Source: Acidobacteriota bacterium
GTDB lineage: Bacteria > Acidobacteriota > Blastocatellia > Pyrinomonadales > Pyrinomonadaceae
Reading direction: 5' to 3'
Length of the DNA: 45,137 bases
NCBI GenBank assembly: GCA_046733615.1
Contig: JBKPPP010000004.1
Location: 1 to 45,137 of the forward strand
In this document: in pieces, positions 5,226-33,870 of the stretch
How positions within the stretch are numbered: the stretch's first letter is position 1
Layout of the letters: each line of letters opens with the position of its first letter
Translations under genes and position numbers: made by a program
Notes under the pieces: generated by a model
Database searches by the model: none
Told to the model about the DNA's origin: nothing
Seen by the model: only the letters and a program-made list of their open reading frames with translations

Positions 5226-5228
5226 ACC

Positions 5229-10307: not shown

Positions 10308-10331
10308 CACCGAACAAGCGGGAGGACTGGA

Positions 10332-10976
10332 TTGAGCCGAACGATAGTAGTGGGAGACATTCACGGTTGTTACGACGAGCTGACGGAGCTGCTCGCGAAG
10401 GTCGGCTTCACGGCGGACGATCGGGTCGTCGCCGTCGGTGATCTGATAACGAAAGGTCCGAAGAACCGCGAAGTGCTCGATCTGTTCATGACTGACGCGC
10501 GTTTCCGCACGGTAATCGGGAATCACGACCTTGCGATTCGTCGCAAGTGGAACGGCGAGAAGCTGAAGTTGCGCACGGCGCAAAAAGTGACTCACAAAGA
10601 GTTGAAAGCAGAAAAAGAGAAGTACCTGCCGTTTCTGAATCGCCTGCCGTTCACCATCGATCTCGGGACGCACCTCGTCGTGCACGCGGGCCTGCGGCCG
10701 GACATCGAGCTTTACTCACAGACGACCGAAGACATGACGCTCATGCGCACGCTCGGCAAGGACCGTGAAAAACATGACGGCACGCCGTGGTACGAGGTCT
10801 ACGACGGCGACAAGATCGTTTTGTTCGGACACTGGCCCTCGCCCGACCCACGCCGCGGGAAAAAGGCCCTGGGTCTCGACACCGGCTGCGTTTACGGTTA
10901 CAAATTAACTGCTTACATTATCGAGACGGACGAGTTAGTCACCGTCCCGGCAAAGCGTGGCTACGATGAATCGTGA
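10332..10976 (+). CDS. Calcineurin-like metallophosphoesterase (ApaH/PrpE-type Ser/Thr phosphatase or diadenosine tetraphosphatase)
   Basis: TTG start. Motifs [27 protein letters not shown] and VVHAG...GH match PPP-family metallophosphoesterases. Confidence 0.8.
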
Positions 10977-11005
10977 CTGTGGGAGGTCAGGTTCGCACAC
11001 TGGAT

Positions 11006-12436: not shown

Positions 12437-12454
12437 CCCGCTTTCGAAACGCGC

Positions 12455-14429: not shown

Positions 14430-14480
14430 ATCGCGGCGGTTCACCCCCGAAAAATTCCCGTAACCAGCAGATACAGAAGG

Positions 14481-14496
14481 TGGTACGGCTCGTGCA
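14481..14496 (+). promoter_or_regulatory. Candidate sigma54 (-24/-12) promoter
   Basis: TGGTACGGCTCGTGCA versus consensus TGGCACG-N4-TTGCW. The GG and GC dinucleotides have correct spacing. Lies 62 nt upstream of ATG 14558 and directly downstream of the EBP/kinase pair. Confidence 0.55.
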
Positions 14497-14557
14497 CTCG
14501 CGCTGGCAGTTGCGAAGACGTGTGAAGGGCAACGTCGAAGGCGAAGGAACGATAAGA

Positions 14558-16659: not shown

Positions 16660-16677
16660 TCTCGCCCGGGAGTCGAT

Positions 16678-18621
16678 ATGGGAGAGCACAACGTCGAACA
16701 AGACTTTCAAGAGACGGACGCGCGGATCTTTATGAAGGCGCTGCTGGAAGATCTGCGGGCGCTGTCGTTCATGCTCGAAAACGGACGCGTTGAGAGCGGC
16801 ATCCGGCGCATCGGAGCGGAGCAGGAGATGTTTCTGATCGACAGCTACCTGCGACCCGCTCCGGTGTCGTTGGAAGTGCTGAGCCAGATTGACGACCCGC
16901 GGCTCACGACTGAGATCGCGCGTTTCAATCTGGAAGCGAACCTCACGCCGCTGCGTTTGACCGGCGCCTGTTTCAGCGAGATGCAGCAGGAGCTCGAGAA
17001 ACTGATCGCGCTGGCGCGGCGCAGTGCGGTCAGCCAGGGCGCAGACATCCTCCTCTCAGGCATTCTGCCGACGCTGCAAAAGTCAGACTTGACGCTCGAT
17101 AACCTCACGCCGGTCGCACGCTATCACGAGTTGAATCGCGGTGTTATTCGTCTGCGCGGCGGCCCGCTTTCGATTCACATCAAAGGGCTCGACGAGCTGC
17201 AGGCCACCCACGACAACATCATGATGGAGTCGTGCAACACCAGCTTCCAGGTCCACTTTCAAAGCACTGCCGGCGAGTTTGTGAATCACTACAACGTGGC
17301 GCAGGCGATCACGGCGCCGGTGCTCGCAGTCGCGGTTAACTCGCCGTTGCTGTTCGGCCGGCGCTTGTGGCAGGAGACGCGCGTCGCGCTGTTCCAGCAT
17401 TCGACTGATGAGCGTTCGTCGTCACAGCTCGCGCGCAGCCAGCCGACACGCGTGAGTTTTGGCGACGAGTGGTTGCGCAACTCGATCGTGGAGCTTTACC
17501 ACGAGCAGATTCTGCGTTTTCGTCCGATCATGATCAGCCGGGCGGACGAGAATCCTTTTGCCGTGCTCGCCCGCGGCGAGACGCCTTCGCTCTCGGCGCT
17601 GCGAATGCACAACGGAACCGTTTGGCGCTGGAATCGCGCCTGCTACGGCGTGACTGACGGCGTGCCGCACCTGCGCATCGAGAACCGCGCGTTGCCGTCC
17701 GGCCCAACGATTACAGACGAGATAGCTAACGCAGCTTTCTTCAGCGGCCTGATGCTGGCGCTCCCTGAAGAGTACGGCGAGATCGCGACGCAGATGGAGT
17801 TTGAAGAGGCGAAGTTGAACTTCTTCCGCGCGGCGCGACACGGCCTCGACGCTCAGTTCCGCTGGATAGGTGGGCAGAGTCTCAGCGCGTCGAAGCTGAT
17901 TTTGAACCACCTCCTGCCGCTCGCGAAACAGGGATTGAGCAGTGCGGAAGTGGCGAGTGAAGACATCGATCGTTACCTCGGCATTATCGAGGAGCGCGCG
18001 CGTTGCGGGCAGACAGGCGCGCGCTGGATCACGAAGTCCTGGGCGGCGATGGGAAACTCGACGTCGAGAGAAACGCGCCGCATGGCACTGACGTCCGCGA
18101 TGTTGAGCAATCAGAAGCAGAATCAACCGGGACACTGTTGGCCCGTGGTTGAAGTCGCCGAGACTGAGCAATGGGAACAGCACTACCAGGTCGTCAGCCA
18201 GTTTATGTCGACCGACTTGTTTACGGTCCATCCGGGCGACTTGATCGATCTCGCGGCAAGCGCGATGAATTGGCGGCACATCCGGCATGTGCCGGTGGAG
18301 GATGAGGATGGACGGCTGGTAGGTTTAGTGACTCATCGCGGTCTGTTGCGAATGATGAGTGGTGGAAGGAGCGAAGCGCTCACCGTGCGGGAGATCATGA
18401 TCGAGAATCCGGTCACCGTTTCGCCGTCGACGACGTCGTTGGAGGCGATGGATCTCATGCGCGGCAATCGCATCGGCTGTTTGCCGGTGGTGGAAGACAA
18501 TCGCCTCGTCGGGATCGTCACGTCGTACGACTTTCTCGAAGCGACGGCAGCACTTTTCAGGCAGCATCTTTCAGCGAAGACGGAAGCGCCCAAGTTTCTG
18601 GCGCAGGCAAACAATGGGTGA
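16678..18621 (+). CDS. Glutamate-cysteine ligase family 2 (carboxylate-amine ligase)-like domain fused to a C-terminal CBS pair
   Basis: N-terminal [12 protein letters not shown] and later GCS2-like blocks. The last ~130 aa form two CBS motifs ([16 protein letters not shown]...[16 protein letters not shown]; [16 protein letters not shown]...[20 protein letters not shown]). Confidence 0.65.
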
Positions 18622-18809
18622 GCGGTACATGTGGAAAATATCCCAAGCAGCGCGGTTTTCTTTGCGACAATATCTCAGTAGTGGGTCATGGCATGAGTAA
18701 AACGCCAGCAAATTTACTAGTTGATTCCTTTGTGCTCTTTGGTACACTCATTGCCAATGACCCTCTGGAGGGCGAGCCAGGGCTCGGTACAGGCGCTCGC
18801 AGTAAGCAC

Positions 18810-19523
18810 ATGGTCGGCGCAAAGCGATGTGCAGTTACGGAGGAGCGGGATCCGCTTATCCCCGAAACGGTTTGTTGTAATTCGGCTTTAGGTGCGCTTC
18901 GCGGCCTGAACGCCGTCAAAACCAGCAGACACCATGCACGCGGTTCGGTGCTGTTTGTCGAAGGTCAAATGCCACGAGGAGTCTATATCCTGTGTGAAGG
19001 TCGTGCGAAAATCTCAATCGCGTCACCCGAAGGCAAGACACTCGTGCTTAGGATTGTTCAGCCTGGTGACGTTTTAGGATTGAATGCCGCACTCACCGGC
19101 TCAACACATACTGCGACGATGCAGGCGCTCGAGCCCTGCCGCGTCGACTTTATACCTCGGAAAGATCTGCTGCGGCTGCTCGATCGTGACAAGCGTGTCT
19201 ATGCCGATGTGGCGCAGGCGTTGAGCTACAAGCTCAATAGCGTGGTAGATCACACCCGGCTGCTGTTCCTGTCGCATTCAGTAACCGAAAGACTGGCGCG
19301 ACTGATGGTTCGGTGGTGTGATGAGGGTGGGAAACGAACCAGCCAGGGAATCAAGATCGTCACAGGTCTTACTCACGAAGAAATCGCCCAGATGATTTGC
19401 ACGTCGCGTGAGACCGTCACGCGACTACTAAGCAAGTTCAAGAAGCAGCATCTGGTCAGCCTTGTCGGCACGACGATTTTTATTCGCAATCGTAAAGCGC
19501 TCGAAGCTCTCGCGGGATTCTGA
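18810..19523 (+). CDS. Crp/Fnr-family transcriptional regulator
   Basis: cNMP-binding-like barrel (GSVLFVEGQMPRGVYILCEGRAKISIASPEGKTLVLRIVQPGDVLG) and C-terminal HTH (LTHEEIAQMICTSRETVTRLLSKFKK). The start was chosen at the internal ATG giving 237 aa; the ORF is open from 18618. Confidence 0.8.
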   Translation: MVGAKRCAVTEERDPLIPETVCCNSALGALRGLNAVKTSRHHARGSVLFVEGQMPRGVYILCEGRAKISIASPEGKTLVLRIVQPGDVLGLNAALTGSTHTATMQALEPCRVDFIPRKDLLRLLDRDKRVYADVAQALSYKLNSVVDHTRLLFLSHSVTERLARLMVRWCDEGGKRTSQGIKIVTGLTHEEIAQMICTSRETVTRLLSKFKKQHLVSLVGTTIFIRNRKALEALAGF

Positions 19524-19534
19524 AGTTCGACTTG

Positions 19535-19550
19535 TGTGATGAGCGTCACA
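19535..19550. promoter_or_regulatory. Perfect CRP-type palindrome TGTGA-N6-TCACA
   Basis: TGTGATGAGCGTCACA lies in the 91-nt gap between the Crp/Fnr gene and the decaheme gene. Its centre is about 72 nt upstream of ATG 19615. Confidence 0.55.
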
Positions 19551-19614
19551 GCCATCGGCACAAACTTATCATTAAAATTGGCGGCATTTTGAGGGCCTGA
19601 GGTGAAACACCACC

Positions 19615-20622
19615 ATGATTAAGTTTCTTATTATTCTCGCTCTGCTTGTAGCGGTGATGTGGCTCGCCACGGGAACCTATTCACAGTCTGCCCCGACAGG
19701 CCAGTCTCAAGCTAAGACTCAAACGCAATCACCCCACGCCAACAGCGGCGACTACGTGGGCAGCGAAGCGTGCAAGGATTGTCACGAGGATCAATTCAAA
19801 AACTTCTCTCATACGACGCACGCGCGTCTGACCATGCTCGCCAGTTGGAAAGATCGCGTGACAGGCTGTGAATCATGTCACGGACCCGGCAAGGCCCACA
19901 TCGAAGAAGGCGATCCCAAAAAGATCATGTCCTTCAAGAACAAGCCGCCCAAGGAGATCTCCGAGACCTGTTTGACTTGTCACTCCGGCAGGGAAGAGCA
20001 CAACAACTTCCGCCGCGGCGAGCACTGGCGTAATGATATCGGGTGCATCGATTGCCATGCGCCCCATTCACCGGCCACTGGCCGGCAACTTGCCGCTTCC
20101 AACGTCTTCGTTTCACCCGCAAACGCACAGAAGCCCGGTTTCTCCACGATTAAGCTGCTCAGAAATAGCGAGCCGCAATTGTGCCTGGGCTGTCATGGCG
20201 AAATGAAGCACCAGTTTAATTTGCCCTTCCATCACAAGGTGCTGGAAGGAGCAATGAAGTGCAGCGATTGCCACAATCCGCACGGCGGTTTCGAACTTAA
20301 ACAAACGCGATTGGCGACAGGCGCGGATGCGGCCTGTATCAAGTGTCACGCTGACAAACAAGGCCCATTCGTATACGAGCACGCGCCGGTCAAGACCGAA
20401 GGTTGCATCGCGTGTCATACACCTCACGGGTCGTCCAACCCACGGCTGTTGATTACGAGCAGGGTCGGACAGCTCTGTCTGACGTGTCACAGCTCGGCCC
20501 ACGGGGTTGGCGCCGACGAACCGGCAGGTCCGCAGCATAACCAAAATGCGCAATACGCTAATTGCACAAACTGTCACGTCAAGATTCACGGTTCACGTAC
20601 GAGTCCAGTCTTTTTCAGGTAA
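19615..20622 (+). CDS. Periplasmic decaheme c-type cytochrome, MtrA/DmsE/PioA/MtoA-like
   Basis: 335 aa with a signal peptide. Exactly ten CXXCH motifs (CKDCH, CESCH, CLTCH, CIDCH, CLGCH, CSDCH, CIKCH, CIACH, CLTCH, CTNCH). C-terminal CTNCHVKIHGS resembles the MtrA-family ending. GAGGTG RBS. Confidence 0.85.
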   Translation: MIKFLIILALLVAVMWLATGTYSQSAPTGQSQAKTQTQSPHANSGDYVGSEACKDCHEDQFKNFSHTTHARLTMLASWKDRVTGCESCHGPGKAHIEEGDPKKIMSFKNKPPKEISETCLTCHSGREEHNNFRRGEHWRNDIGCIDCHAPHSPATGRQLAASNVFVSPANAQKPGFSTIKLLRNSEPQLCLGCHGEMKHQFNLPFHHKVLEGAMKCSDCHNPHGGFELKQTRLATGADAACIKCHADKQGPFVYEHAPVKTEGCIACHTPHGSSNPRLLITSRVGQLCLTCHSSAHGVGADEPAGPQHNQNAQYANCTNCHVKIHGSRTSPVFFR

Positions 20623-20667
20623 CCGTATTGTGAATCGTGGCGGCGGGCTAAGTCGGGAGGATGTCCC

Positions 20668-22860
20668 ATGACAAGGAAACCAGAGCGAGCGTACTTGATA
20701 CTTTCGGGAATAGTATTGTTGCTGATGATAGTGTCGGCGCAAGCTCAGCAACCGTCGCCCACGCCAAAAACCGATAACAATCAACCTGGTGCGCCCGTCG
20801 AAGCAGGCGAGGACGCAGGTGACTACACGGTCATCTCGAGTTTGGAGTTCGGTTATCGGGGAATAAGACTCGACGGCGACGAGAACAAGTACAAGAGCGA
20901 TCTCAATTACAAGGCTGGCCCACGCCTGTTCGACAGTAGTTTCCTAATGAGATCGCAGGACGGCAAATCGAATTTTTTCAATACCCTGCTCGTGACTTCG
21001 ACTGGTTGGGGAGCTGACCCGCAGGGCAATTTCAGAATAAGCGTCGAGAATCCAAAGTGGTATCGCTTTGACGGCACTTACCGCCGTTTCAAATACTTTC
21101 GTTTTCTGAATACCTTTGCCAATCCAAACTGGGTATTTAGTCCGCCGCAGTTTAGTGTGCCGCCGAAGCCCGGGACCGGTGAGCACGGCTTCAACACGAA
21201 AACCACGATGGGAGATTTTGATCTCACCATCCTGCCGAAGAACGAACGAATCAGATTCAACGTCGGATACTCGCCGGAACGTTACAATGGCCCTGCGTTC
21301 ACGAACTACCACTCCGGCGGAAACGAATTCAATCTCCTGTCGAATCTCAGATCCCGAGCGAACGACTTCCGCGTGGGAGCGGACGGGCGGATTGGCGGGG
21401 TCAATTTCTCGTTCCTCCAGGGTTTTCGCCGTTTTCGTGACGACAGCTCTATCGATTCCGGCGTGAATCCGGGCATCAACGTGAACCCGACCGCCGCGAA
21501 TCTCACCACTTTCCACCGCAACGAGCCCGCGCGCGGCAGCGTTAATTACACGCGCTTCAGCTTGCAGACGCTGATTGCCGGAAAACTCGATATCACAGGC
21601 CGCATCATCTACAGCAAGGCGAAGCAGACCTACGATTTTGCTGAGAACTTCACCGGCCGCAACTGGAACCCGCGAATCACGGGATTCCCGCCCAGCCCGC
21701 CGGCCGCAACGCCGAATATTCTCAACCTGGGCCAGTACGTTCTGAATGGTGAATCCGAACGGCCCAATACGCTCGGAGACATCGGATTGACGTACCGCTT
21801 CAACGAGCATTTCCGGCTTTCAAACACGTTTCGCGTAGAAGATTTCAAGATCGACGGCTTCGCCCTGTTCAGTGATTTCTTCTCGCTCACGCGCGGAACG
21901 AGGACCGATACGATCGGATTCAGTAACAACAACGTAAACACGTTGACCAAGTACCGGAAATACCAGAACCTGGTCGAAGGCGACTACCAGTTCAATAATC
22001 GCTACTCGGTCCACCTTGGATATCGTTACGCGAGGCGCCGGATCGAGGAAGAGCTGAGCGGTTTTAACCTCGGCTCGAATTCGCCCACGCCGCTAACTCC
22101 GGAGAGTTTTGAGGAACACAACAACACCAACGTAGTGATTGGCGGTTTCAAAGCGCGGCCGCTCACTGACTGGACGATCTACTTCGACGCCGAACACGGC
22201 ACGGCCGACAACGTCTTCACTCGAATCGGAAACTACAACTTCACCAATGTTCGAGCTAAGAGCCGGTACAAACCGAGTCGAAATGTGGCGTTCAATGTGT
22301 CGTACATTACGAAAAACAATTCCAACCCTTCGGAGATCGCCGGTGTTTCGCTCGAAGACTTTGGCGTAAGCGTGAAATCGCGTCTCTTCTCCACGACTCT
22401 TGATTGGACTCCTGATTCAAGAGCGTCGTTCAGCACCGGATACAACTACCACTGGATCACCAGCAATTCCGCTATTGAATACTTCTTCAATAGTGTACAG
22501 CACCCGTTTGGTCACAGTGTCTATTACAGCCGGAACAACTTCTTCTTTATCGATGCGGTGCTCCAGCCGGCTCGCCGCGTGACACTATTCACGTCGTACC
22601 GGATCAATAAAGATAACGGTCAGGGCAATCGAGTTGCCGACCCGACCGGTAATCCCGGATTGCTGATCGCTTCTTATCCGATGAGTTTCCAGTCACCCGA
22701 AGCGCGGCTGGCGATCAAGTTACATCATCGACTTGATTGGAACATTGGCTACCAGTATTACAACTACGACGAAAGCGCGATTGTCGGTCCAAGACCGCAG
22801 AACTATCACGTACACCTCCCATACACGTCGTTGCGAATTTACATCGGTCGAAGAGAATAG
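20668..22860 (+). CDS. Large outer-membrane beta-barrel protein, MtrB/PioB-like porin partner of the decaheme
   Basis: 730 aa, signal peptide ...LLLMIVSAQAQQ, no Cys. Alternating aromatic/polar beta-strand pattern throughout (many Y/F/W-x-G/N/D turns). GGGAGG RBS. Position immediately 3' of an MtrA-like gene and a size like MtrB (about 700 aa). Family assignment is inferred, not searched. Confidence 0.6.
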   Translation: MTRKPERAYLILSGIVLLLMIVSAQAQQPSPTPKTDNNQPGAPVEAGEDAGDYTVISSLEFGYRGIRLDGDENKYKSDLNYKAGPRLFDSSFLMRSQDGKSNFFNTLLVTSTGWGADPQGNFRISVENPKWYRFDGTYRRFKYFRFLNTFANPNWVFSPPQFSVPPKPGTGEHGFNTKTTMGDFDLTILPKNERIRFNVGYSPERYNGPAFTNYHSGGNEFNLLSNLRSRANDFRVGADGRIGGVNFSFLQGFRRFRDDSSIDSGVNPGINVNPTAANLTTFHRNEPARGSVNYTRFSLQTLIAGKLDITGRIIYSKAKQTYDFAENFTGRNWNPRITGFPPSPPAATPNILNLGQYVLNGESERPNTLGDIGLTYRFNEHFRLSNTFRVEDFKIDGFALFSDFFSLTRGTRTDTIGFSNNNVNTLTKYRKYQNLVEGDYQFNNRYSVHLGYRYARRRIEEELSGFNLGSNSPTPLTPESFEEHNNTNVVIGGFKARPLTDWTIYFDAEHGTADNVFTRIGNYNFTNVRAKSRYKPSRNVAFNVSYITKNNSNPSEIAGVSLEDFGVSVKSRLFSTTLDWTPDSRASFSTGYNYHWITSNSAIEYFFNSVQHPFGHSVYYSRNNFFFIDAVLQPARRVTLFTSYRINKDNGQGNRVADPTGNPGLLIASYPMSFQSPEARLAIKLHHRLDWNIGYQYYNYDESAIVGPRPQNYHVHLPYTSLRIYIGRRE

Positions 22861-22920
22861 AGTTAGAAACGAAGGCCACGGTAAGTTGCAGTTTCAGTTC
22901 TGATAACTCCGGAGGACTGA

Positions 22921-23403
22921 GTGGGCGACATTATTGCCGATAAGACAACTGGCCCAGGCCGCGATCCTGCATTACAAACAACGTCCCGTCGCAAGTTCCT
23001 CGATTACTTGCTCGGAACCAGTGCAGTCGCGACCCTGGGTGCGATCTTGTATCCGATCATCCGGTTCATGGTGCCGCCGCACATCGTGGAGGCACTGCAA
23101 AACTCCGTGGTGGCCGCCAAGGTGACTGAGCTCCCGCCAAACTCGGCGAAGATCTTCAAATTCGGCAGCAAACCCGGGATTGTTATCCGCACGGCGTCCG
23201 GAGAATTGAAGGCCTTCTCAGCCGTGTGCACCCACCTCGACTGCATCGTGCAGTATCGTCAGGATACGAAACAGATCTGGTGCGCCTGCCATAACGGTCA
23301 ATACAACCTCAACGGAGAAAACATCGGCGGTCCCCCGCCGCGGCCCCTGGAAGAATATGTAGTGAACAAACGAGGCGACGACATTGTAGTAAACAGATCC
23401 TGA
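22921..23403 (+). CDS. Rieske [2Fe-2S] subunit of a cytochrome bc/b6f-type complex, Tat-exported
   Basis: GTG start after GGAGGA. Twin-arginine motif [11 protein letters not shown] plus TM helix. Rieske boxes CTHLDC and CACHNG. Confidence 0.88.
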
Positions 23404-23408
23404 AGCCG

Positions 23409-24473
23409 ATGAAAGTCGACACAGTGAAAAGCTGGCTTGATGAGCGTCTCTACATAAGCGCGCTCACCCAGGCGGCGCAGAAGAAAGAAGTTCCGCTTCA
23501 CCGTCAGTCAATCTGGTACTACTTCGGTGGTATGACGCTGTTTCTTTTCGTGGTCCAGGTGGTCACGGGAATCCTGTTATTGCTCTACTACCGGCCGAGC
23601 GCTGAAAACGCGTTTGAGAGCGTTCAGTTCATCATGACTGAGGTGAAGTTTGGCTGGCTGATCCGTTCAATTCATAGTTGGTCGGCGAACCTGATGATTC
23701 TGACGCTGTTCATCCACCTGTTCAGCGTCTATTTCATGCGCGCTTACAACCGGCCTCGCGAGATCACGTGGGTCAGCGGCGTGGTGCTGCTGTTCATTTC
23801 CATCTGTTTTGGGTTCAGCGGGTATTTACTGCCGTGGAACGAGGTCTCGTTCTTTGCTACGAAGGTGGGCACTGAGATTGCCGGCGTCATTCCAGTCGTC
23901 GGCAAGACAATGTTGCGCTTCCTGCGCGGCGGTGACGAAGTGACCGGCGCCACGTTGACGCGCTTTTTCGGATTTCACGTCGCAGTGCTACCGGCAATGG
24001 CGACGGTATTTGTATTTGTGCACGTCCTGCTGGTCCAGGTGCACGGCATGCATGTTCCGGCTCGTTATGAACAGAATAGCCGGCGCATAAAATTCTTTCC
24101 AAACTTCATAATGCGCGACGCGATCGGGTGGTTATTCGCAATTGGCGCGTTGGCTGCACTCGCCGCCATTTTCCCTTGGGAGCTCGGCGTCAAAGCGGAT
24201 CCGTTTGCGCCGGCCCCGGCCGGAATAAAACCGGAATGGTATTTCCTGTTCATGTTTCAAACACTGAAATACATTCCAGCGAAGATTCTCAGTATTGATG
24301 GCGAAGTTCTCGGCATTCTTTTTTTCATGTTGGCAGGCGGCGCCCTGTTTCTGGTGCCGTTCATTAATCGCTCTGCGGAGCAGCATCCGCGCCGCAGGCT
24401 GGTGTTCAATCTACTCGGAATTATCGCGATCTTGTTCATGGCAGTTATGACGGTGATCGGGTATTTAGCGTGA
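23409..24473 (+). CDS. Cytochrome b (fused b6 + subunit IV type)
   Basis: [30 protein letters not shown]. Helix B has H-x13-H ([15 protein letters not shown]) and helix D has H-x14-H ([16 protein letters not shown]), which is b6-like spacing. Qo-site PEWY motif ([15 protein letters not shown]). Confidence 0.9.
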
Positions 24474-25756
24474 TAACGAGAATCCGATTACTTTTGCTGT
24501 TTGCGGCCGGCGTGTTGTTGATTACTGCCTGCCCGGCCGCTGCTCAGCAGAAAAACTCGTGTCTCGAGTGTCACAGCAAACTGGAAGGAGAATTCGGCGC
24601 GCCCGCGCGTTCGATTAAAGACGACATTCATCTTTCCAGAGGTCTCTCCTGCAACGATTGCCACGGCGGCGATCCGACCAAGGACGACAAGGACGCCGCG
24701 AAAGACAGATCGAAAGGTTATTTGGGGCGGCCTCGAACGGTAGATATTCCCGCCTTCTGCGGCAAGTGTCACAACGATGCGAGCTTTATGAAGAAGTTTA
24801 ATCCGGCTTTGCGAGTGGACCAGGAGAAGGAGTACTCGACCAGCGTTCACGGACAACTGCTAAAAAAGGGAAACGAGAAGGTCGCCACCTGTATCAGTTG
24901 TCATGGCGTGCACGGAATTCGCGCCGTGAGCGACGCTCTTTCTTCAGTGTACCCGTCGAACGTTGCGGAGACCTGTTCCAAGTGCCACAGCGAAGCGGGC
25001 CGGATGGCCGAATTCAAAATTCCGACAGATCAATACTCGAGGTACAAGAAGAGTGTTCATGCGAAGGCGTTGTATGAGAAGCAGGATCTCAGTGCTCCGA
25101 CATGCAACGACTGTCATGGTAATCATGGCGCGGCTCCTCCGGGCATCGCGTCGGTGGCAAATGTTTGCGGGCAGTGTCACGCACGGCAGGCGGAGCTGTT
25201 TCAAGCCAGCCCACACAAAGTCGCGTTCGATAACGCGGGATTTGGCGAGTGCATCAAGTGTCATAACAACCACGACATCTACCCGCCCACCGATGCTCTG
25301 ATAGGCACAGGCGAAAACTCTATTTGTATATCGTGTCATAAACCGGGCGACAAAGGATTCATCGCTGCCGGCCAAATGCGCGGCGCGATCGACGACCTGT
25401 TGGCTCGTATCAAGCGCTCGGAGGAGATACTGGGTCGGGCGGAACGCGCAGGCATGGAAGTAAGTAAGCCCAAGTTTGATTTGCGTGAGGCAATTGACGG
25501 CGTTACTCATGCACGCGTGCTGATCCACACCTCATCTCCCGCGGAAGTCGACAAGCTGGTTGTGCCGGCGGTCGGGGTTGCGACAAAGGCGTACGAGTCT
25601 GGACAGGGCGCGCTTGCGGAGTTGAATGTTAGACGCAAAGGTCTGGTGGTCTCACTATTTTTTATCCTGTTCCTGGCGTTTCTGGTGTATTTAAAGCTGA
25701 GAGAAATTGAGAGACGGCGGCCAGCCGAGGGATTTTCAAAGAGTGGCGGCACCTAA
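24470..25756 (+). CDS. Membrane-anchored nonaheme c-type cytochrome (occupies the cytochrome c1/f position of the Rieske/cyt b operon)
   Basis: GTG start overlaps the cyt b stop (GTGA). Nine CXXCH motifs. N-terminal signal with possible lipobox LITAC. Helical region and C-terminal TM helix [18 protein letters not shown]. Three motifs are of the CxxCHxxHxI type. Confidence 0.8.
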
Positions 25757-25765
25757 AAAGGACAA

Positions 25766-26968
25766 ATGCGCATACCGGTACAAGGGACAATCTCCTTCTT
25801 AGCGTGTCTCGTTTTCTTGCTCTGCTTCGGCGGTTTCATCGACGCGCACGATTCGTCGGTAGTCGCTCAGACGCGTCGTCGTGCGCGGCCACGACAGAGT
25901 CAACCACAGAAGCCGCGCATCGACTACTCGAGATTTTCGCACCACACTCACGTCCAGACGCAAAAGCTTGCCTGTGATTCGTGCCATAAGTTTCCCTCGA
26001 AAAACTGGAAAGAAGTTCGTAAGGGCGACGATGCGTTCGCCGACGTGACTGACTTTCCCGAACACCAGGCCTGTCTCAACTGTCATCGCACACAGTTCTT
26101 CGCGCGTGAACGGCCGGCGCCGGTCATCTGTTCGAACTGTCACGTTGCGGTTACTCCAAAAAACACCGCGCGGCATCCATTTCCAAGTCTGGGCGCACCA
26201 TTCCTGAGCACGCGTCCGGATTTCGTTTCGGAGTTCAAGGTTGCGTTTCCACATGAGAAACACGTGGACGTGGTGGGTAGCCTGCGTTTCAGACTTCGCG
26301 ATGATCGGACATTCGCTTTTGCTCATGCATCGTACACGCGGGATGATGCGCAGTCTAAGAGTTGCGTCGTATGCCATCACACCTACCAGCCCCAGGGAAA
26401 GTCGAGTGACGAGTTTGTTACCCCGCCGCCGAAGAACCTGCCCGAAGACGCGTTCTGGTTGAAGAAGGGCGCCTTCAAAACAACACCGACTACCCACAGC
26501 GATTGTTCCACTTGTCACAACGAAGAGGCGGGGATCGCTCCTTCGCCAAAGGACTGTGCTGCCTGTCATAAGTTTTCGCCTGCGGTTACTGAGCCGCTGC
26601 GCGACTTCGATCCAAAACTCGCCGCGACGATGCGCGTAACTGATTGGGTGATGCTGCGAAAGTGGTCACGACGCAGCGCCGGACGTTATCGACACGAGTT
26701 CGATGTTCATAATGAGATGGGTTGTACGTCCTGCCATAACCCGGCCGTGATGAACACGCTCGACGAGAGAACGTTTGTTTCGGTGAAGTCGTGCGGCGGG
26801 AGCGGTGGCTGTCACATTGAAACAAATACGGAAGGCATTCTGAACTACGAGATCGAACAGAAGAAAAAGAATCCGGCGTTCCATTGTGTCAAGTGCCACA
26901 TCATAATAGGCAAGAACCCCGTTCCGCAGGATCACCTGGACGCGATCCCGAAAGCGCCAACGAAATAA
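25766..26968 (+). CDS. Multiheme c-type cytochrome, c7/c3-like repeats (8 CXXCH + 1 CX5CH)
   Basis: 400 aa with a hydrophobic N-terminus. Eight CXXCH motifs plus CGGSGGCH. Repeated F-x-H-x-x-H strings (FSHHTH, FPHEKH) are typical of c7/c3 domains. Confidence 0.8.
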   Translation: MRIPVQGTISFLACLVFLLCFGGFIDAHDSSVVAQTRRRARPRQSQPQKPRIDYSRFSHHTHVQTQKLACDSCHKFPSKNWKEVRKGDDAFADVTDFPEHQACLNCHRTQFFARERPAPVICSNCHVAVTPKNTARHPFPSLGAPFLSTRPDFVSEFKVAFPHEKHVDVVGSLRFRLRDDRTFAFAHASYTRDDAQSKSCVVCHHTYQPQGKSSDEFVTPPPKNLPEDAFWLKKGAFKTTPTTHSDCSTCHNEEAGIAPSPKDCAACHKFSPAVTEPLRDFDPKLAATMRVTDWVMLRKWSRRSAGRYRHEFDVHNEMGCTSCHNPAVMNTLDERTFVSVKSCGGSGGCHIETNTEGILNYEIEQKKKNPAFHCVKCHIIIGKNPVPQDHLDAIPKAPTK

Positions 26969-27792
26969 TGCTGGAAGAGACTACAGGCAAACCGCGCGTA
27001 TCGTTATTGCTTTGCGCCTTCATGGGCGTCGTCGTCTTTTGTATGGCCCAACCGAGCGCCGCGGCGCAGGAGCCGAGTCTTGATTACTCGAAGTTTCTTC
27101 ACACGACGCAGAACCATGCGCGCATGCCTTGTTTGTTATGTCACAGGCGAGAGAGCAATTCGCCCCGGCCTGCTCTGCCGGGTGCGGCGCAGCACGCCCC
27201 TTGCGCGGGATGCCATGCGCAGCAGTTTGCGAATAAAGAGAGTCCCATCTGCACGATTTGTCATACCGACGTCAATTCCGGCGCGACGAAGCCTTTCCCG
27301 CCGCTGAAGAGTTTCCGCGTCAACTTCGATCACGGAAAACACTTGAGTATGGGTGGCGTGAGTTGTGCTACCTGTCATCGGCCCGCAAGAGGCGGTGTCG
27401 CGCTCTCGATTCCGGCCGGCTTCAATGCCCATTCGACCTGCTTTACCTGTCACACGCCTCGTGCAAAATCCGGCGATCGAGACATTTCTTCCTGCGGAAC
27501 GTGCCATAAAGTCGGCGGTTACTCCAGAACGCCTCAGTGGACCGCGGCTTTTCGCATGAGTTTCAGTCACGCTAAACATGGCTCGGGGCAGAAGCTGAGT
27601 TGTGACGACTGTCATCAGGTGAGAACCGGCTTGCCGCAGAGCCGACAAGTGACTGCTCCGGAGCCTGCTAATCATCACGCGAGCGGGCGAACCCAGAGTT
27701 GCATGACTTGTCATGATGGCAAGCGGGCGTTTGGCGGTGATGATTTCTCTGTTTGCAAGCGATGTCACACAGGAGTGCGGTGGCAGTTTTGA
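26968..27792 (+). CDS. Nonaheme c-type cytochrome built of c7-type triheme modules
   Basis: ATG 26968 overlaps the preceding TAA (TAATG). Signal peptide ...VVFCMAQPSAAAQ. Nine CXXCH in about 250 mature residues, with FDHGKH and FSHAKH strings. Confidence 0.8.
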   Translation: MLEETTGKPRVSLLLCAFMGVVVFCMAQPSAAAQEPSLDYSKFLHTTQNHARMPCLLCHRRESNSPRPALPGAAQHAPCAGCHAQQFANKESPICTICHTDVNSGATKPFPPLKSFRVNFDHGKHLSMGGVSCATCHRPARGGVALSIPAGFNAHSTCFTCHTPRAKSGDRDISSCGTCHKVGGYSRTPQWTAAFRMSFSHAKHGSGQKLSCDDCHQVRTGLPQSRQVTAPEPANHHASGRTQSCMTCHDGKRAFGGDDFSVCKRCHTGVRWQF

Positions 27793-27845
27793 TGTGAAGC
27801 CCCCAACGTTGAATTCGTTTTGAGAAGTTTCCAGGAGGTGTGAAC

Positions 27846-28421
27846 ATGAAGCGCTTCATCGCTGTCGTTATCGTTTTCGGCGCGCTTGTCCTTTACTTCA
27901 ACTTGGCGGGGCCACTCCGCGATGCAGCAGCACAGGATGCTAAGAAGCCGCAGGATACTTATGTGCTCGCTCAGGAGGCGAAACTGGGTACGGTTACCTT
28001 CAGTCATCTCAATCACACGACAAAGAATCGCAATTCCGAAGGCACCGGCCCGAGTGCGTGTATTGAGTGTCACCATACAGCACAGCCTGCTGCTGAGGCA
28101 GCCAAGCATCCGCCACTCAAGACGGTCTGGCCTGCGGATCGAACCACGACGCTGACTGCTGAAACGTTGGCGAAGGATCCAAACGCCGTCGGCGCAGTCT
28201 GCCGCGACTGTCACGCGCGCGCCGATACCAAGCCGAAATTGCTGCCGGAGATTCCGCAGATAAAACTTGAAGTTGGCACCGAGCTGGTGACGCTGACAAA
28301 CCAGCAGGCATTCCATCGCAACTGTGCCGGGTGTCATGACCAGGTCGCCAAGGCGAGGACTGACGTGAATCCTCCCACTTCGAAGAAGTGCACGGCTTGT
28401 CACAAGAAAACAGCCGCCTGA
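27846..28421 (+). CDS. Tetraheme cytochrome c3-family protein
   Basis: MKRFIAVVIVFGALVLYFNLA signal/anchor. Four CXXCH (CIECH, CRDCH, CAGCH, CTACH). VTFSHLNH string. GGAGGTG RBS. Confidence 0.8.
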   Translation: MKRFIAVVIVFGALVLYFNLAGPLRDAAAQDAKKPQDTYVLAQEAKLGTVTFSHLNHTTKNRNSEGTGPSACIECHHTAQPAAEAAKHPPLKTVWPADRTTTLTAETLAKDPNAVGAVCRDCHARADTKPKLLPEIPQIKLEVGTELVTLTNQQAFHRNCAGCHDQVAKARTDVNPPTSKKCTACHKKTAA

Positions 28422-28436
28422 TGCGGGTGAGAGTGA

Positions 28437-28475
28437 CTGCGGAAAGTTTCCCAGTTCTGCGCCAACAACCGCAGA
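28437..28475. promoter_or_regulatory. Candidate enhancer (UAS): CTGCGGAAAGTTTCC plus inverted repeat TCTGCG-N8-CGCAGA
   Basis: GGAAA-G-TTTCC palindrome preceded by CTGCG (28437-28452), and an inverted repeat at 28456-28475. Both lie about 40-78 bp upstream of the -24 element at 28514. Same architecture as 14392-14429. Confidence 0.35.
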
Positions 28476-28513
28476 TTTGCCGGATTTTCAGGCGTTTTGC
28501 TGTGTATAAGAAG

Positions 28514-28529
28514 CGGCACGCTCATTGCT
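28514..28529 (+). promoter_or_regulatory. Candidate sigma54 (-24/-12) promoter
   Basis: CGGCACGCTCATTGCT matches TGGCACG-N4-TTGCW at all conserved positions except the first T. Lies 63 nt upstream of ATG 28592 in a 170-nt gap. Confidence 0.6.
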
Positions 28530-28591
28530 CCTCGAACGGCGCGGGAGGCTAACCCCGGCTCGTAAAGTTGCTACATGAGAGGGCTGAAGCG

Positions 28592-28921
28592 ATGAAAAAC
28601 TTGATTGGTTGGACCAGACTAACGCTCATGCTGGGCGGTATCATATCTGTGGCGGCATTATTCATGGTGACGGCGGCGCCTGCGCGCACGAGTAATGATG
28701 ACGACGCGGCCGCAATGTTTAAATCAAAATGTGTCGCGTGCCACGGAGCAACGGCCGAGAAGAAGTTCGACGCGACCAAAGCTGACGATGTGCTTGTCCA
28801 GACTGTCTTGAAAGGCAGAAAGCTGGAGAAGCCACCGAACATGCCGGCCTACGAAGAGAAGGGCATTACAGAAGACCAGGCCAAGGCACTGGTCGCCTTT
28901 ATGAAATCGTTGAAGAAGTAG
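28592..28921 (+). CDS. Monoheme class I cytochrome c
   Basis: ATG after GAGGG. Signal/anchor helix. Single CVACHG with distal Met candidate in PPNMPAY. 109 aa. Confidence 0.8.
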   Translation: MKNLIGWTRLTLMLGGIISVAALFMVTAAPARTSNDDDAAAMFKSKCVACHGATAEKKFDATKADDVLVQTVLKGRKLEKPPNMPAYEEKGITEDQAKALVAFMKSLKK

Positions 28922-29034
28922 CTGCCGATTTAGAAAAACTGAACGGGCCATAAACAGACACAGAGCACAAGCAGAGTGAATTTTACTTCGCTTGTGCGCT
29001 TGTGTTTGTTATGGCTCTTTACTGCATCCGCTTA

Positions 29035-30930
29035 ATGAAACGTTGGGCAACATTTCTGGTAGTGTTGTTCGCCTTGTCTTTCGTGTGCGTTGGTTTGCAA
29101 ACGCAGTTGAGTCATGCGCAGCGTTCGGCAGCCACACCAACGCCATCGCCCAGTCCGTCCCCCGCTCAAACGAGCGCACCGAATCTGCAATGTCAGGGTT
29201 GTCACGCGCCCGGTAAGACTCTGCCGTATCTCGGCGGCGCCAAGTTCCACACGGACGTGCACACCGCCTACGACCACGGCTTTCACGCTCAGGCAATTCA
29301 GGGTGGACGCAAAGCCGCGACTTGCATCGATTGCCATACTCGAAACGGAGACATGACGACGATCCTGCCCGGTGCGGATCCAAATTCGACTATTCATCGC
29401 AGAAACATCGCCGACACTTGCGGCCGCTGTCATGGCGACAAGTCGGTCATGCAAGGCAGCGGGATTAGCGATCGGCCGTTTCTTTCCTATCGCGAGAGCG
29501 TGCATGCGAAGGCGATCGCGCAGGGTAATATCAACGCGGCCGTTTGCACTGACTGTCACAACAGTCACGACATTCTTCCCGCTTCCAATCCCCAGTCGCC
29601 GATCACAAAGGTGAACATACCCGCGACGTGTAGCAAGTGTCACAAGGCTGAAACCGCGGAGTTCATGCAGAGTATTCACGGCCAAGCGGTGACGCGCGGT
29701 GTGTCGCGCTCTCCGGTGTGCACGGACTGTCACGGAATTCACAACATCGTCGCGCCGGTTGAGCGAGCCACCGCGACAGTCTCGAGCGCTGTCGCCACTG
29801 AAACCTGTGCTCGTTGTCATGAAGGCGTTACGCTGACCAAGGAATTCGGCGTCGCCGGCGAGCGCGTCAGCAGCTACAAGGATAGTTACCACGGGCTGGC
29901 GTCACGGATGGGTTCGCGCGTGGTGGCAAACTGTGCGAGCTGTCACGGTGTACACAACATCCTCCCCTCATCGGATCCGAGCTCGATGATCAATATAAGC
30001 AACCTGCCTCACACCTGCGGACAGTGTCACGTTGGCGCGGGTGCTAAATTCGCCACCGGCAGGATTCATCTGACTTCAGAGTTGATCGCTGCAAATGGCG
30101 CACGCGATCTGGGTGCAATCGGGACGCGTATTGTTCGCTGGATTTACATTCCGCTGATCGTGCTGGTGATTGGAGGGATGGTGGTTCACAACGCGCTCGT
30201 TTGGGGGCGCAAGGTCGTAGCGCGCAAGCACGAGAAACGCGAGATTGTTCGTCTGACTCGCAATCAGCGAGTGCAGCACTGGCTATTGCTGACCAGCTTT
30301 ATCGTCCTCGTGCTGAGTGGCTTCGCGCTTCAATATCCTGACTCCTGGCTCGCAGCGATGTTAGGTGGTAACGAGTATCTGCGACGAATAATTCATCGCG
30401 TCGCCGCCGTAGTGATGCTGGTTGTCGGCGCGTATCATCTCGTCTACCTGGCCAAAGCAAAAGAAGGCCGCCTGTGGGTGAAAGACATGCTTGTCAGGGG
30501 CAAAGACTTCAGAGATTTGCTCGGCAACTTCGGCTATTATCTCGGCATGTCGAAAGCCAGGCCGAAGTTTGCTCGGTTCGGCTATGCTGAGAAGGCTGAG
30601 TATTGGGCCGTGTTGTGGGGAACGCTCGTCATGGGCCTCACCGGTCTGATGATCTGGTTCAAGCTGGGCATTTTTGCATTTCTGCCGCGATGGGCCATCG
30701 ACGTCGCGCTCTCGATTCACTTTTACGAAGCGGTGCTGGCGACGCTCGCGATTGTGGTTTGGCACTTCTATCACGTAATTTTTGACCCCGACGTCTATCC
30801 CGTCAACTTCGCCTTTCTGGATGGCCGTGTCTCCACCGAGCATTACCGAGAAGAGCACGGACTAGCCTACGAACAACAACAGCAAGAACAAACTGAAGAA
30901 CAAGCTGGAGAACAAACAGGTACGCCATGA
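29035..30930 (+). CDS. Fusion of a periplasmic nonaheme c-type cytochrome domain with a C-terminal membrane b-type cytochrome domain (HydC/FdnI-like); CbcL-like
   Basis: Signal peptide MKRWATFLVVLFALSFVCVGLQ. Nine CXXCH. Then at least four hydrophobic segments with conserved His (VQHWLLL, IHRVAAVVMLVVGAYHLVY, HFYEAVLATLAIVVWHFYH). GTG 29002 or ATG 29011 are alternative starts. Confidence 0.8.
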   Translation: MKRWATFLVVLFALSFVCVGLQTQLSHAQRSAATPTPSPSPSPAQTSAPNLQCQGCHAPGKTLPYLGGAKFHTDVHTAYDHGFHAQAIQGGRKAATCIDCHTRNGDMTTILPGADPNSTIHRRNIADTCGRCHGDKSVMQGSGISDRPFLSYRESVHAKAIAQGNINAAVCTDCHNSHDILPASNPQSPITKVNIPATCSKCHKAETAEFMQSIHGQAVTRGVSRSPVCTDCHGIHNIVAPVERATATVSSAVATETCARCHEGVTLTKEFGVAGERVSSYKDSYHGLASRMGSRVVANCASCHGVHNILPSSDPSSMINISNLPHTCGQCHVGAGAKFATGRIHLTSELIAANGARDLGAIGTRIVRWIYIPLIVLVIGGMVVHNALVWGRKVVARKHEKREIVRLTRNQRVQHWLLLTSFIVLVLSGFALQYPDSWLAAMLGGNEYLRRIIHRVAAVVMLVVGAYHLVYLAKAKEGRLWVKDMLVRGKDFRDLLGNFGYYLGMSKARPKFARFGYAEKAEYWAVLWGTLVMGLTGLMIWFKLGIFAFLPRWAIDVALSIHFYEAVLATLAIVVWHFYHVIFDPDVYPVNFAFLDGRVSTEHYREEHGLAYEQQQQEQTEEQAGEQTGTP

Positions 30931-32501
30931 GCGAAACTAAAAAGCCGAGCACGAGACTAACCAGTCTTTTCCGCAACTACATCAGTTTCGTCGGTGCAGC
31001 GATCGCCACTGCGGCTCTCGTAAGCACTGTGCTGTTGTTTTTGGTTGAGATTAGTTCGCACCTGGAAAATCCTTATCTTGGCATTCTGACTTACATAATC
31101 TTTCCGTCGATTCTCTTGCTGGGTTTGATAATCGTGGTCATCGGGATGATGGTCGAGAGACGCCGGCGGCATCGCGGATCGCCCGAACAGATCGCAGCTT
31201 ACCCGAAACTGGATCTGAACGACCCACGCGCACGTAAGGCATTCTTCGTCTTTCTCGTGGCCACGTTTCTTTTCATCTGTGCGAGCGCCTTCGGCAGTTA
31301 CAAAGCTTACGAATACACGGAGTCGGTCGAGTTTTGTGGTGCGACCTGTCACAAGCCGATGAAACCCGAGTACACGGCTTACAGGGCCGGAGCCCACGCG
31401 CGCGTCGGCTGTGTTGGCTGTCACGTCGGACCAGGGGCCGGTTGGTACGTCCGTTCGAAACTCTCCGGCGCGTATCAGCTCTATTCCGTGTCTTTCAATA
31501 AGTATCCTAGGCCGATCACAACGCCCGTTCATAATCTTCGGCCGGCGCCTGAGACATGCGAGCAGTGTCACTGGCCCGAGAAGTTCTTTGGCGCTCAACT
31601 GAAAGTCTTTAATCATTACGCGTACGACGAGAAAAACACGTTACGGCAAATGCGCCTGCTGATTAACGTCGGCGGCGGCAGCCCAACCACCGGTGCGGTC
31701 GCGGGAATTCATTGGCACATGAACATCTCCAATACCATCGACTACATCTCGACCGACGATCATCGCCAGGTGATACCGTGGATACGCATCAAGGATCGCC
31801 AGGGAAACGTGACCGAGTACTACGATCGTTCGCGGCCACTGACGCAGCAACAGATCGCCGGCTCTGAAAAGCGGCGCATGGACTGCGTCGACTGTCATAA
31901 TCGTCCGGCGCATTCATACCTTCCGCCGGACGTCGCGGTGGACCATTCCCTCGCCGCGGGTAGACTCGATCCATCCTTACCCTATCTCAAGCGACAGGCA
32001 GTCGGAGCGCTGAACAAGGAATACAGTACCGAGGATGAAGCGGTGAAGACGATCGCGCAGAGTCTCGACGGCTTTTACCGGACAAACTACAGCGATCTGT
32101 ATGCGCAGAAACCCGATGTCATCAAAGGCGCGATCGACGAGACACAGCGAATCTACAAGACCTATTTCTTTCCGGAGATGAAGACCAATTGGGAGACTCA
32201 TCCCAACAACATCGGCCATCTCTATTCATCGGGTTGTTTTCGCTGTCATGACGGTGAGCACGTCAGTAACACGGGGAAGGTGATTCGTAACGACTGCACT
32301 ATTTGTCACACTATGCTGTCCGACTCCGCGCGCCCCGCGGCAGCCAATCAAACACCCACACCTCAGCATCCGGTTGATCTGGGTGGACTGGCCGATCGCA
32401 AGTGCGAAACGTGTCACAAAGCGAATGAGCCGTTTCGCCATCCGGTTAATCTGGGAGACATTTCGATGTTTCAGTGCGTGGAGTGTCACCCGAAGAAGTG
32501 A
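30927..32501 (+). CDS. Inner-membrane multiheme cytochrome with three N-terminal TM helices and a NapC/NirT-like region (7 CXXCH + 1 CX3CH); ImcH-like
   Basis: ATG overlaps the upstream stop (ATGA). Three hydrophobic helices in the first 125 aa. NapC/NirT-like string SVEFCGATCHKPMKPEYTAYRAGAHARVGCVGCH. Seven canonical CXXCH. Confidence 0.75.
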   Translation: MSETKKPSTRLTSLFRNYISFVGAAIATAALVSTVLLFLVEISSHLENPYLGILTYIIFPSILLLGLIIVVIGMMVERRRRHRGSPEQIAAYPKLDLNDPRARKAFFVFLVATFLFICASAFGSYKAYEYTESVEFCGATCHKPMKPEYTAYRAGAHARVGCVGCHVGPGAGWYVRSKLSGAYQLYSVSFNKYPRPITTPVHNLRPAPETCEQCHWPEKFFGAQLKVFNHYAYDEKNTLRQMRLLINVGGGSPTTGAVAGIHWHMNISNTIDYISTDDHRQVIPWIRIKDRQGNVTEYYDRSRPLTQQQIAGSEKRRMDCVDCHNRPAHSYLPPDVAVDHSLAAGRLDPSLPYLKRQAVGALNKEYSTEDEAVKTIAQSLDGFYRTNYSDLYAQKPDVIKGAIDETQRIYKTYFFPEMKTNWETHPNNIGHLYSSGCFRCHDGEHVSNTGKVIRNDCTICHTMLSDSARPAAANQTPTPQHPVDLGGLADRKCETCHKANEPFRHPVNLGDISMFQCVECHPKK

Positions 32502-33778: not shown

Positions 33779-33831
33779 GGCTTCAATCTTCCGGCACCGT
33801 GTGAACTAACAGCTCTGTTATTACTCAAGCC

Positions 33832-33870
33832 GAGAGCCGCGGTTTTTGCAGCCGCGGCTCTCGCTTTATT
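33832..33870 (+). terminator. Rho-independent terminator
   Basis: 11-bp GC-rich stem GAGAGCCGCGG / CCGCGGCTCTC with a 9-nt loop, followed by GCTTTATT. Lies between convergent genes. Confidence 0.65.

Follow-up and report, generated by a model that had tools for sequence, protein, structure and literature searches.

The described systems that come closest to the locus analysed here join a porin–cytochrome conduit to further electron-transfer genes in several ways. In the Mto clusters of Sideroxydans, Gallionella and Dechloromonas, and in PioAB of Rhodopseudomonas, a decaheme cytochrome gene is followed by that of a large barrel and no MtrC-type partner is present; the Mto clusters also encode a class I monoheme cytochrome c and an inner-membrane NapC/NirT- or CbcL-type cytochrome (PMC6295460; PMC10654088). 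The mtr cluster of Rhodoferax ferrireducens (mtrABC, two cymA genes and mtrH) sets several quinol oxidases, a CbcL homologue included, beside MtrAB, and these alternative oxidases have been suggested to serve acceptors of different potential (PMC6295460). Geobacter sulfurreducens extHIJKLMNOPQS places a conduit (porin ExtI, with ExtKL) beside the multihemes ExtM, ExtN and ExtS (10–12 hemes), the Rieske protein ExtO, the b6-like cytochrome b ExtP, and ExtQ (PMC5877670); ImcH (GSU3259) and CbcL (GSU0274) of Geobacter are encoded elsewhere. A 2018 genomic survey found neither mtrAB nor mtoAB beside any imcH (PMC6295460). Here we describe 12 consecutive plus-strand genes (18618–32501), a Crp/Fnr-family regulator gene and an eleven-gene cluster, in a 45,137-nt stretch of contig JBKPPP010000004.1 (hereafter the window) from an uncultured soil acidobacterium of the Pyrinomonadaceae. 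The cluster links an MtrA/MtrB-like pair to imcH, to cbcL and to a Rieske/cytochrome b complex, and we read it, with a probability of roughly 0.6, as an inducible outward pathway from the menaquinol pool to the cell exterior, likely used under oxygen limitation.

The window locus has the decaheme–barrel order and the lack of an MtrC-type partner in common with Mto and Pio, and the monoheme and inner-membrane cytochromes in common with Mto. It departs from Mto in that its NapC/NirT-like protein is of the ImcH type, with three helices and eight heme motifs, where Mto has a tetraheme CymA. Relative to both systems it adds c7-type nona- and tetrahemes and a Rieske/cytochrome b complex, has a barrel that only borders on the Pfam family, belongs to a heterotrophic acidobacterial host and would carry electrons the opposite way. 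Like Rhodoferax mtr it keeps several quinol oxidases next to an MtrAB-like pair, but MtrC is missing, ImcH replaces CymA and the Rieske/cytochrome b complex is extra. Compared with Shewanella MtrCAB (PDB code 6R2Q), the decaheme resembles MtrA and the barrel model has MtrB as its best PDB match, although again there is no MtrC and the barrel lacks a CXXC motif. Geobacter ext likewise has a conduit beside a Rieske protein, a b6-like cytochrome b and multihemes, but its porin, ExtI (45 kDa), is phosphate-porin-like and its ExtKL is a selenoprotein with five hemes, a rhodanese gene is absent from the window locus, and window proteins fall short of the Ext equivalog models (cytochrome b 212.6 bits on ExtP, cutoff 290; ExtM 25.4 versus 800, ExtN and ExtO 17.1 versus 200, ExtS 16.9 versus 100). 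Geobacter ImcH and CbcL match the window proteins in domain architecture, transmembrane layout and heme-motif spacing; the window genes, however, are adjacent, overlap by 4 nt and sit in one operon with the outer-membrane conduit, and at its C terminus the window ImcH type carries one heme motif more, a feature that it shares with the homologue OLE50779.1.

An earlier note on this DNA, made from the sequence alone, had called the locus a mixture of modules normally described separately. That is true only in part: each component is of a kind already known, and Geobacter ext, Rhodoferax mtr and Mto already join a porin conduit to quinol-oxidoreductase genes. New are the linkage of imcH to an MtrAB-like pair, for which the window is a counter-example to the 2018 survey, the presence of imcH and cbcL in one operon with a conduit and, presumably, a Rieske/cytochrome b complex that uses a CbcL-type nonaheme as its cytochrome subunit. 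As far as the literature searched goes, Pyrinomonadaceae are also new as a host lineage for such a system, and where it mentions both the family and extracellular electron transfer this locus is not described; porin–cytochrome genes have been noted in other Acidobacteria (PMC10654088). The same literature yielded neither a description of the eleven-gene locus nor a prior characterization of an identical one in a cultured organism, and the locus is known from metagenome-assembled genomes (MAGs) only.

Gene order and heme content

The eleven open reading frames follow the order decaheme, barrel, Rieske protein, cytochrome b, membrane-anchored nonaheme (c9TM), the periplasmic cytochromes c8, c9, c4 and c1, CbcL-type protein and ImcH-type protein. 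All lie on the plus strand where the first reading of the sequence had put them, with gaps of at most 170 nt and three start/stop overlaps (spacing in order: 45, 60, 5, −4, 9, −1, 47, 170, 80 and −4 nt). The 57 CXXCH motifs counted then were found again, distributed over eight proteins as 10, 9, 8, 9, 4, 1, 9 and 7 in a total of 2905 residues; the 19 other window reading frames (8308 residues) contain none, and in residue shuffles of the eight cytochromes the motifs averaged 0.28 and never exceeded 3. Two non-canonical sites, a CX3CH at residue 137 of the ImcH-type protein and a CX5CH (CGGSGGCH) in c8, would likely bring the heme total to about 59. The only repeats found are those of heme-motif codons. 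By hydropathy, signal peptides are predicted for decaheme, barrel and soluble cytochromes alike, and the locations that it assigns, one per protein, agree with the compartments proposed below. Every module assignment of the earlier note was upheld by profile, structure or architecture tests, that of the barrel with borderline agreement in sequence; the cluster is real and non-random, and that first interpretation is right in outline.

Conserved core and accessory modules

Scanning species-representative genomes with the barrel as query gave 52 loci. Every one comes from a MAG and none from an isolate; one of these MAGs is called simply 'bacterium' and one Actinomycetota, and the rest are assigned to Pyrinomonadaceae, Blastocatellia or Acidobacteriota. 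The gene-neighbourhood comparison that had been proposed for the window order found all eleven genes in the same arrangement in two loci (L002 and L004) and the arrangement without c4 in three more (L039, L012 and L016, the last ending after CbcL), while L014 follows it through c1, where that locus ends. In a distant clade, whose barrels are 32–43% identical to that of the window, the regulator, decaheme and barrel genes, with or without Rieske/cytochrome b/c9TM and with or without CbcL, lie on one strand, and c8-c9-c1-imcH converge on them from the opposite strand. Heme-motif counts are conserved across related loci, and the decaheme and barrel genes are adjacent in nearly all of the 52.

Module counts cover the 25 loci whose downstream sequence is long enough: 24 contain imcH, 13 cbcL, seven the Rieske/cytochrome b module and five all three. 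The core is the regulator, decaheme and barrel together with c8, c9, c1 and ImcH; the CbcL and Rieske/cytochrome b modules are accessory, not universal. Across genomes one conserved conduit is paired with one, two or three quinol-oxidizing modules, a natural experiment whose variation could be used to study how electron-transfer chains are fitted to the potential of their acceptors and what each route yields in conserved energy.

An MtrA-family decaheme and an MtrB-like barrel

The first gene of the cluster (19615–20622) encodes a 335-residue c-type cytochrome with a signal peptide and 10 CXXCH motifs, predicted to be periplasmic and inserted into the barrel. It belongs to the DmsE/MtrA/MtoA family: the score on TIGR03508, the DmsE-family model, is 236.5 bits (cutoff 192.2), and MtrA is matched in the PDB (6r2q_A, E = 1e-31); on the narrower GSU2203 model it reaches 235 against a cutoff of 325. 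Ten motifs are kept in 45 of the 46 homologues counted. Downstream by 45 nt begins the gene for the outer-membrane β-barrel (20668–22860), whose 730 residues include a signal peptide and, as previously read, no cysteine, and which presumably sheaths the decaheme as MtrB and PioB do.

The proposed likeness of the barrel to MtrB/PioB is supported by its modelled fold and by its close homologues, but not by the window sequence itself or by profile comparisons. An AlphaFold2 model of moderate confidence (mean predicted local distance difference test 62, predicted template-modelling (TM) score 0.54) shows a plug-less barrel of about 26–28 strands; its top Foldseek match in the PDB is MtrB (6r2q_B, E = 1.7e-11, TM 0.54/0.59), followed by TonB-dependent receptors (TM 0.34–0.44). 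The window sequence does not match Pfam PF11854 (MtrB_PioB). Six homologues that are 73–79% identical to it do, at 24.5–31.8 bits (threshold 23) and always through the same co-linear central region; one of them is named an MtrB/PioB family protein by NCBI. Further out the signal fades: one of 20 diverse family members matches PF11854 (E = 0.002), none of 10 distant representatives does, a profile built from the 20 members found no MtrB among PDB sequences, and when that profile was compared with a true MtrB from Photobacterium, which itself scores 510 bits on PF11854, the probability was 0.7%, not a significant match. Membership of MtrB/PioB is therefore borderline at the level of sequence profiles. 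The matches of close homologues, the modelled fold and the position directly after an MtrA-family decaheme gene together support a barrel that would work like MtrB.

Some MAGs carry two tandem decaheme–barrel pairs, at about 4332–7600 and at 8897–12208 in L014 and at 8961–12148 and 12646–15800 in L030; in L030 an identical TGTGACGCGGCTCACA box precedes each pair. In L054, on one 123-kb contig, the decaheme/barrel region (6350–8910) is split into short reading frames and the remaining locus is intact, which could reflect pseudogenization or assembly frameshifts.

ImcH- and CbcL-type cytochromes

The last gene (30927–32501) encodes an ImcH-type protein with three transmembrane helices (about 18–44, 49–80 and 101–126), a NapC/NirT-like region (Cytochrom_NNT, 33.6 bits, cutoff 24.1), one CX3CH and seven CXXCH motifs. 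These fall at residues 137, 162, 211, 320, 437, 457 and 493, with the extra motif at 517; the positions tabulated for GSU3259 are 132, 156, 205, 311, 428, 448 and 486, so that spacings of 25/49/109/117/20/36 compare with 24/49/106/117/20/38. The window positions are identical to those tabulated for the soil acidobacterial ImcH homologue OLE50779.1, and the first motif has the CXXXCH form that has been published for ImcH. Assignment to the ImcH family follows from this comparison of tabulated layout and motif positions. Searches of PDB sequences gave no informative solved relative for either the ImcH-type protein or c9TM.

The preceding gene (29002–30930) encodes a protein of the CbcL/MtoC/MtrH type, in which a nonaheme c domain (9 CXXCH) is followed by several transmembrane segments of an FdnI/HydC-like b-type membrane domain (Ni_hydr_CYTB, PF01292, 52.7 bits, cutoff 30.1; FdnI, 1kqf_C, E = 2.6e-6). 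The last five heme motifs are spaced 30/29/42/28, against 29/28/43/28 tabulated for GSU0274. Architecture and motif spacing both place the protein in this family, and nine motifs are kept in 16 of the 18 homologues counted.

A Rieske/cytochrome b complex with a presumed nonaheme partner

The Rieske [2Fe–2S] subunit (22921–23403; Pfam Rieske 52.6 bits, with a further match to TM_PetC) carries a twin-arginine (Tat) export motif, SRRKFL, the cluster boxes CTHLDC and CACHNG, and one helix. With CACHNG where other Rieske proteins have CPCHGS, the cluster is predicted to be of low potential and of the menaquinol type. In the 354-residue cytochrome b (23409–24473), which has several hydrophobic segments along its length, b6-like and subunit-IV-like parts are fused (Cytochrome_B 189.6 bits, Cytochrom_B_C 48.8 bits). 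Among PDB sequences its match to cytochrome b6 has E = 3e-62; it retains all four histidine ligands and has PEWY in its subunit-IV-like C terminus. The CxH and CxxH boxes, the four histidines and the PEWY Qo motif identify a bc-type Rieske/cytochrome b pair. It is not a cytochrome b6f: tyrosine stands in place of the heme ci-binding cysteine (IWYYFGG aligned with IFYCLGG of b6), b6 and subunit IV are one chain, and the partner is a nonaheme instead of cytochrome f.

That partner, c9TM (24470–25756; 9 CXXCH), starts 4 nt inside the end of the cytochrome b gene and is presumed to be the c-subunit of the complex, with which it always co-occurs in related loci. A C-terminal transmembrane helix (387–414) anchors it and is conserved in 12 of 12 homologues. 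We considered c9TM as an MtrC-like surface lipoprotein and rejected this, as the cysteine of its lipobox-like I-T-A-C is not conserved in those homologues and the C-terminal anchor is. Its heme domain, which contains internal repeats, is paralogous to that of the CbcL-type protein (30% identity, E = 3e-22); the same periplasmic 'output' domain thus appears on two different quinol-oxidizing membrane modules.

Periplasmic cytochromes

Between the two membrane modules lie four genes for periplasmic cytochromes. The first, c8 (25766–26968; Cytochrome_C7), is a core member with eight CXXCH motifs and the CX5CH noted above, which aligns column for column with a CX3CH in L012 and with a canonical CXXCH in the distant clade, and it probably carries nine hemes. 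The three forms illustrate naturally occurring, successive loop expansions at this one heme site. The nonaheme c9 (26968–27792; 9 CXXCH) is built of c7-type triheme units (Cytochrome_C7, 76 bits over three stretches) and scores 45.6 bits on TIGR04257, nanowire_3heme (cutoff 40); its identification as a nonaheme stood, and its start was corrected to the ATG at 26968 from an upstream TTG. The tetraheme c4 (27840–28421; 4 CXXCH, a Cytochrom_CIII match) is of the c3/c7 class and accessory, being present in only some related loci. The gene for the class I monoheme c1 (28592–28921; 1 CXXCH, Cytochrome_CBB3 40.1 bits) immediately precedes imcH in most of the loci where imcH occurs.

A Crp-type box shared by split operons

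The eleven-gene cluster is presumably under the control of the regulator encoded just ahead of it (18810–19523). The mechanical reading frame opens at 18618; homologue lengths of 228–244 residues make 18810 the probable start (237 residues), so that the Crp/Fnr gene and the perfect TGTGA-N6-TCACA site reported upstream of the cluster were both confirmed and the gene start alone was moved. Pfam cNMP_binding, HTH_Crp_2 and Crp all match the protein, and a cNMP-binding-like domain, a Crp-type helix-turn-helix and a matching palindromic operator together define it as a Crp/Fnr regulator. Its recognition helix reads RETVTR, which we take to be the pattern by which CRP contacts TGTGA. The perfect palindrome TGTGATGAGCGTCACA (19535–19550), presumed binding site of the adjacent regulator, is the sole perfect TGTGA-N6-TCACA match in the window. 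The palindrome and the −35 hexamer of a promoter-like site, GTCACA-16-TATCAT (19545–19572), overlap in a geometry that would suit a class II activator site.

In most related loci synteny between the regulator and decaheme genes is kept. Where the regulator gene lies nearby, perfect or one-mismatch boxes stand upstream of the decaheme gene; loci without the regulator gene have no box there. In the distant clade, 10 of 13 loci have another perfect box 45–105 nt ahead of c8, at the head of the separate c8-c9-c1-imcH operon, and two more have a box with one mismatch there, against a background of 0.053 perfect sites per kb. Because the two split operons carry the same Crp-type box, there is good evidence that the conduit genes and c8-c9-c1-imcH form one regulon, and the co-regulation on which the first interpretation depended holds as far as sequence can tell. 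As a signature of the regulon, the conserved box could also guide searches of metatranscriptomes. Distant-clade regulators (L027–L038) have an FNR-like N-terminal C-x2-C-x8-C, which suggests that the window clade lost this cluster yet kept the box, and that the signal sensed changed while the regulon stayed constant.

One-mismatch matches to the box within genes (19867–19882, 29728–29743 and 32403–32418) coincide with CXXCH-coding DNA (TGY...TGYCAY), and we discarded them as operators: they are by-products of CXXCH codons, whose resemblance to the Crp box raises the motif background in heme-rich genes.

Proposed pathway and direction of electron flow

From the observed gene content, family assignments, conserved synteny and conserved regulator site we infer an order of carriers, an outward direction, an inducing signal and a matching of oxidases to acceptor potential. 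Electrons would enter through up to three inner-membrane quinol oxidases: the universal ImcH type, the optional CbcL type and the optional Rieske/cytochrome b complex, the last with a membrane-anchored nonaheme, kin of the CbcL heme domain, as its c-subunit. Soluble c7/c3-type multihemes (c8, c9 and c4) and the monoheme c would bridge the periplasm, and the MtrA-family decaheme threaded in its MtrB-like barrel would pass electrons on to acceptors outside the cell, such as Fe(III), Mn(IV) or humics. The adjacent Crp/Fnr-family regulator would activate from its class-II-like TGTGA-N6-TCACA site, probably on oxygen or energy limitation. The three oxidases may serve acceptors of different redox potential, with the Rieske/cytochrome b complex giving the highest energy yield where the acceptor is of high potential, such as Mn(IV).

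Several observations weigh against the outward reading. The locus encodes no MtrC/OmcA-type surface cytochrome and no lipoprotein cytochrome, and the window regulator lacks the N-terminal cysteine cluster of the FNR subtype. The barrel, being free of cysteine, also has no counterpart of the N-terminal CXXC of MtrB in metal-reducing Gammaproteobacteria. The Pyrinomonadaceae described so far are aerobes and are not known to reduce metals. Two-component decaheme–barrel systems (MtoAB, PioAB) are best known from Fe(II) oxidizers, and the order decaheme, barrel, monoheme c, NapC/NirT-/CbcL-like protein parallels mtoAB-mtoD-cymA/mtoC, for which inward transfer has been proposed (PMC6295460; PMC10654088).

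These points lead to the main alternative, an inward or bidirectional system of the Mto/Pio type, which we consider less likely. In the inward case extracellular Fe(II), reduced humics or minerals would be the electron donors of the decaheme–barrel pair; a terminal oxidase would be fed by the monoheme c, as by MtoD; and ImcH, CbcL and Rieske/cytochrome b would run in reverse to reduce menaquinone. A two-component outer-membrane system without an MtrC-like partner, a class I monoheme c in the conserved core and a cysteine-free barrel all fit such a scheme, as do the CbcL homologues (MtoC) in mto clusters of Fe(II) oxidizers (PMC6295460) and the PioAB homologues reported to be common in Acidobacteria (PMC10654088). 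The only role so far described for ImcH is that of a quinol oxidase in outward pathways (PMC4251993; PMC6295460), its homologues were not found beside mtoAB (PMC6295460), and it is here the near-universal partner of the conduit (24 of 25 loci), which argues for outward flow. Quinol-oxidizing modules would be superfluous for electron uptake that feeds an oxidase in a heterotroph, and reverse flow to quinone would be needed for autotrophy, which the window genes do not indicate. Finally, the FNR-like regulators of the distant clade and the anaerobic or stress-type neighbours of the locus (universal stress protein, CBS, HSP20 and pyruvate:ferredoxin oxidoreductase genes) are in keeping with low oxygen more than with aerobic Fe(II) oxidation, and count towards the outward reading.

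A second alternative concerns one module. The Rieske/cytochrome b/nonaheme genes could encode a housekeeping complex III placed here by chance, which would leave only two dedicated entry points; Rieske/cytochrome b complexes are general respiratory enzymes, and the module occurs in only seven of the 25 related loci, at the other end of one of them (L017). We think this improbable. By its genomic placement the module is dedicated to the electron-transfer locus, since a separate search selected on cytochrome b (77–86% identity) found the same locus, with the module in it, on all four long contigs examined. As c-subunit it has no c1-, f- or diheme-type protein but a nonaheme, a paralogue of the CbcL heme domain; its genes are translationally coupled within the operon, and a gene absent from the loci of most relatives is unlikely to encode their sole complex III. 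A role for the decaheme–barrel pair in serving a surface reductase of a soluble substrate, as DmsEF serves DmsAB with dimethyl sulfoxide, is suggested by DmsE being the decaheme's best curated family, but we rejected it as very improbable because no gene for a molybdopterin or other catalytic reductase occurs in the window or in any related locus examined.

If the outward pathway is as proposed, extracellular electron transfer extends to an abundant, mostly uncultured soil lineage for which the literature searched holds no description of it. A more specific version we put forward only tentatively, and it may well be wrong: that soil Pyrinomonadaceae have a dedicated extracellular respiration in which a proton-motive Rieske/cytochrome b Q-cycle complex with a recruited CbcL-type nonaheme joins ImcH and CbcL as three tiers of oxidase, each suited to a different acceptor potential, on one MtrAB-like conduit. 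Were it true, this would be the first complex III specialized for extracellular electron transfer, and a dominant dryland-soil lineage regarded as aerobic oligotrophs would respire minerals or humics in anoxic pulses.

Surroundings of the locus

Directly upstream of the regulator (14480–18621) lie genes for a flavoprotein resembling sulfide:quinone reductase (148 bits on the type III model, well under its cutoff), a tandem-domain universal stress protein and a 647-residue GCS2-like/CBS protein. Tandem universal stress protein, CBS/GCS2, HSP20 and pyruvate:ferredoxin oxidoreductase genes are frequent neighbours in related MAGs: the universal stress protein and CBS genes are syntenic with the locus there, pyruvate:ferredoxin oxidoreductase is adjacent in several and HSP20 in one. 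Further upstream, 10973–14386 encodes a sigma-54 response regulator and a PAS hybrid histidine kinase, and 7156–10976 a polyphosphate kinase 1 followed by a DUF4956/MgtC-like membrane protein and a metallophosphoesterase, possibly a polyphosphate-handling unit.

A scan of the whole window at Rfam gathering thresholds gave no match, tRNA families included; ARAGORN predicts a tRNA-Leu(TAA) on the minus strand at 44372–44457, with no Rfam counterpart. Terminator predictions were not above background except for one strong hairpin at 33831–33863, beyond the locus. G+C content passes from 0.58–0.61 in the first 18 kb to 0.51–0.56 over the locus and everything downstream of it.

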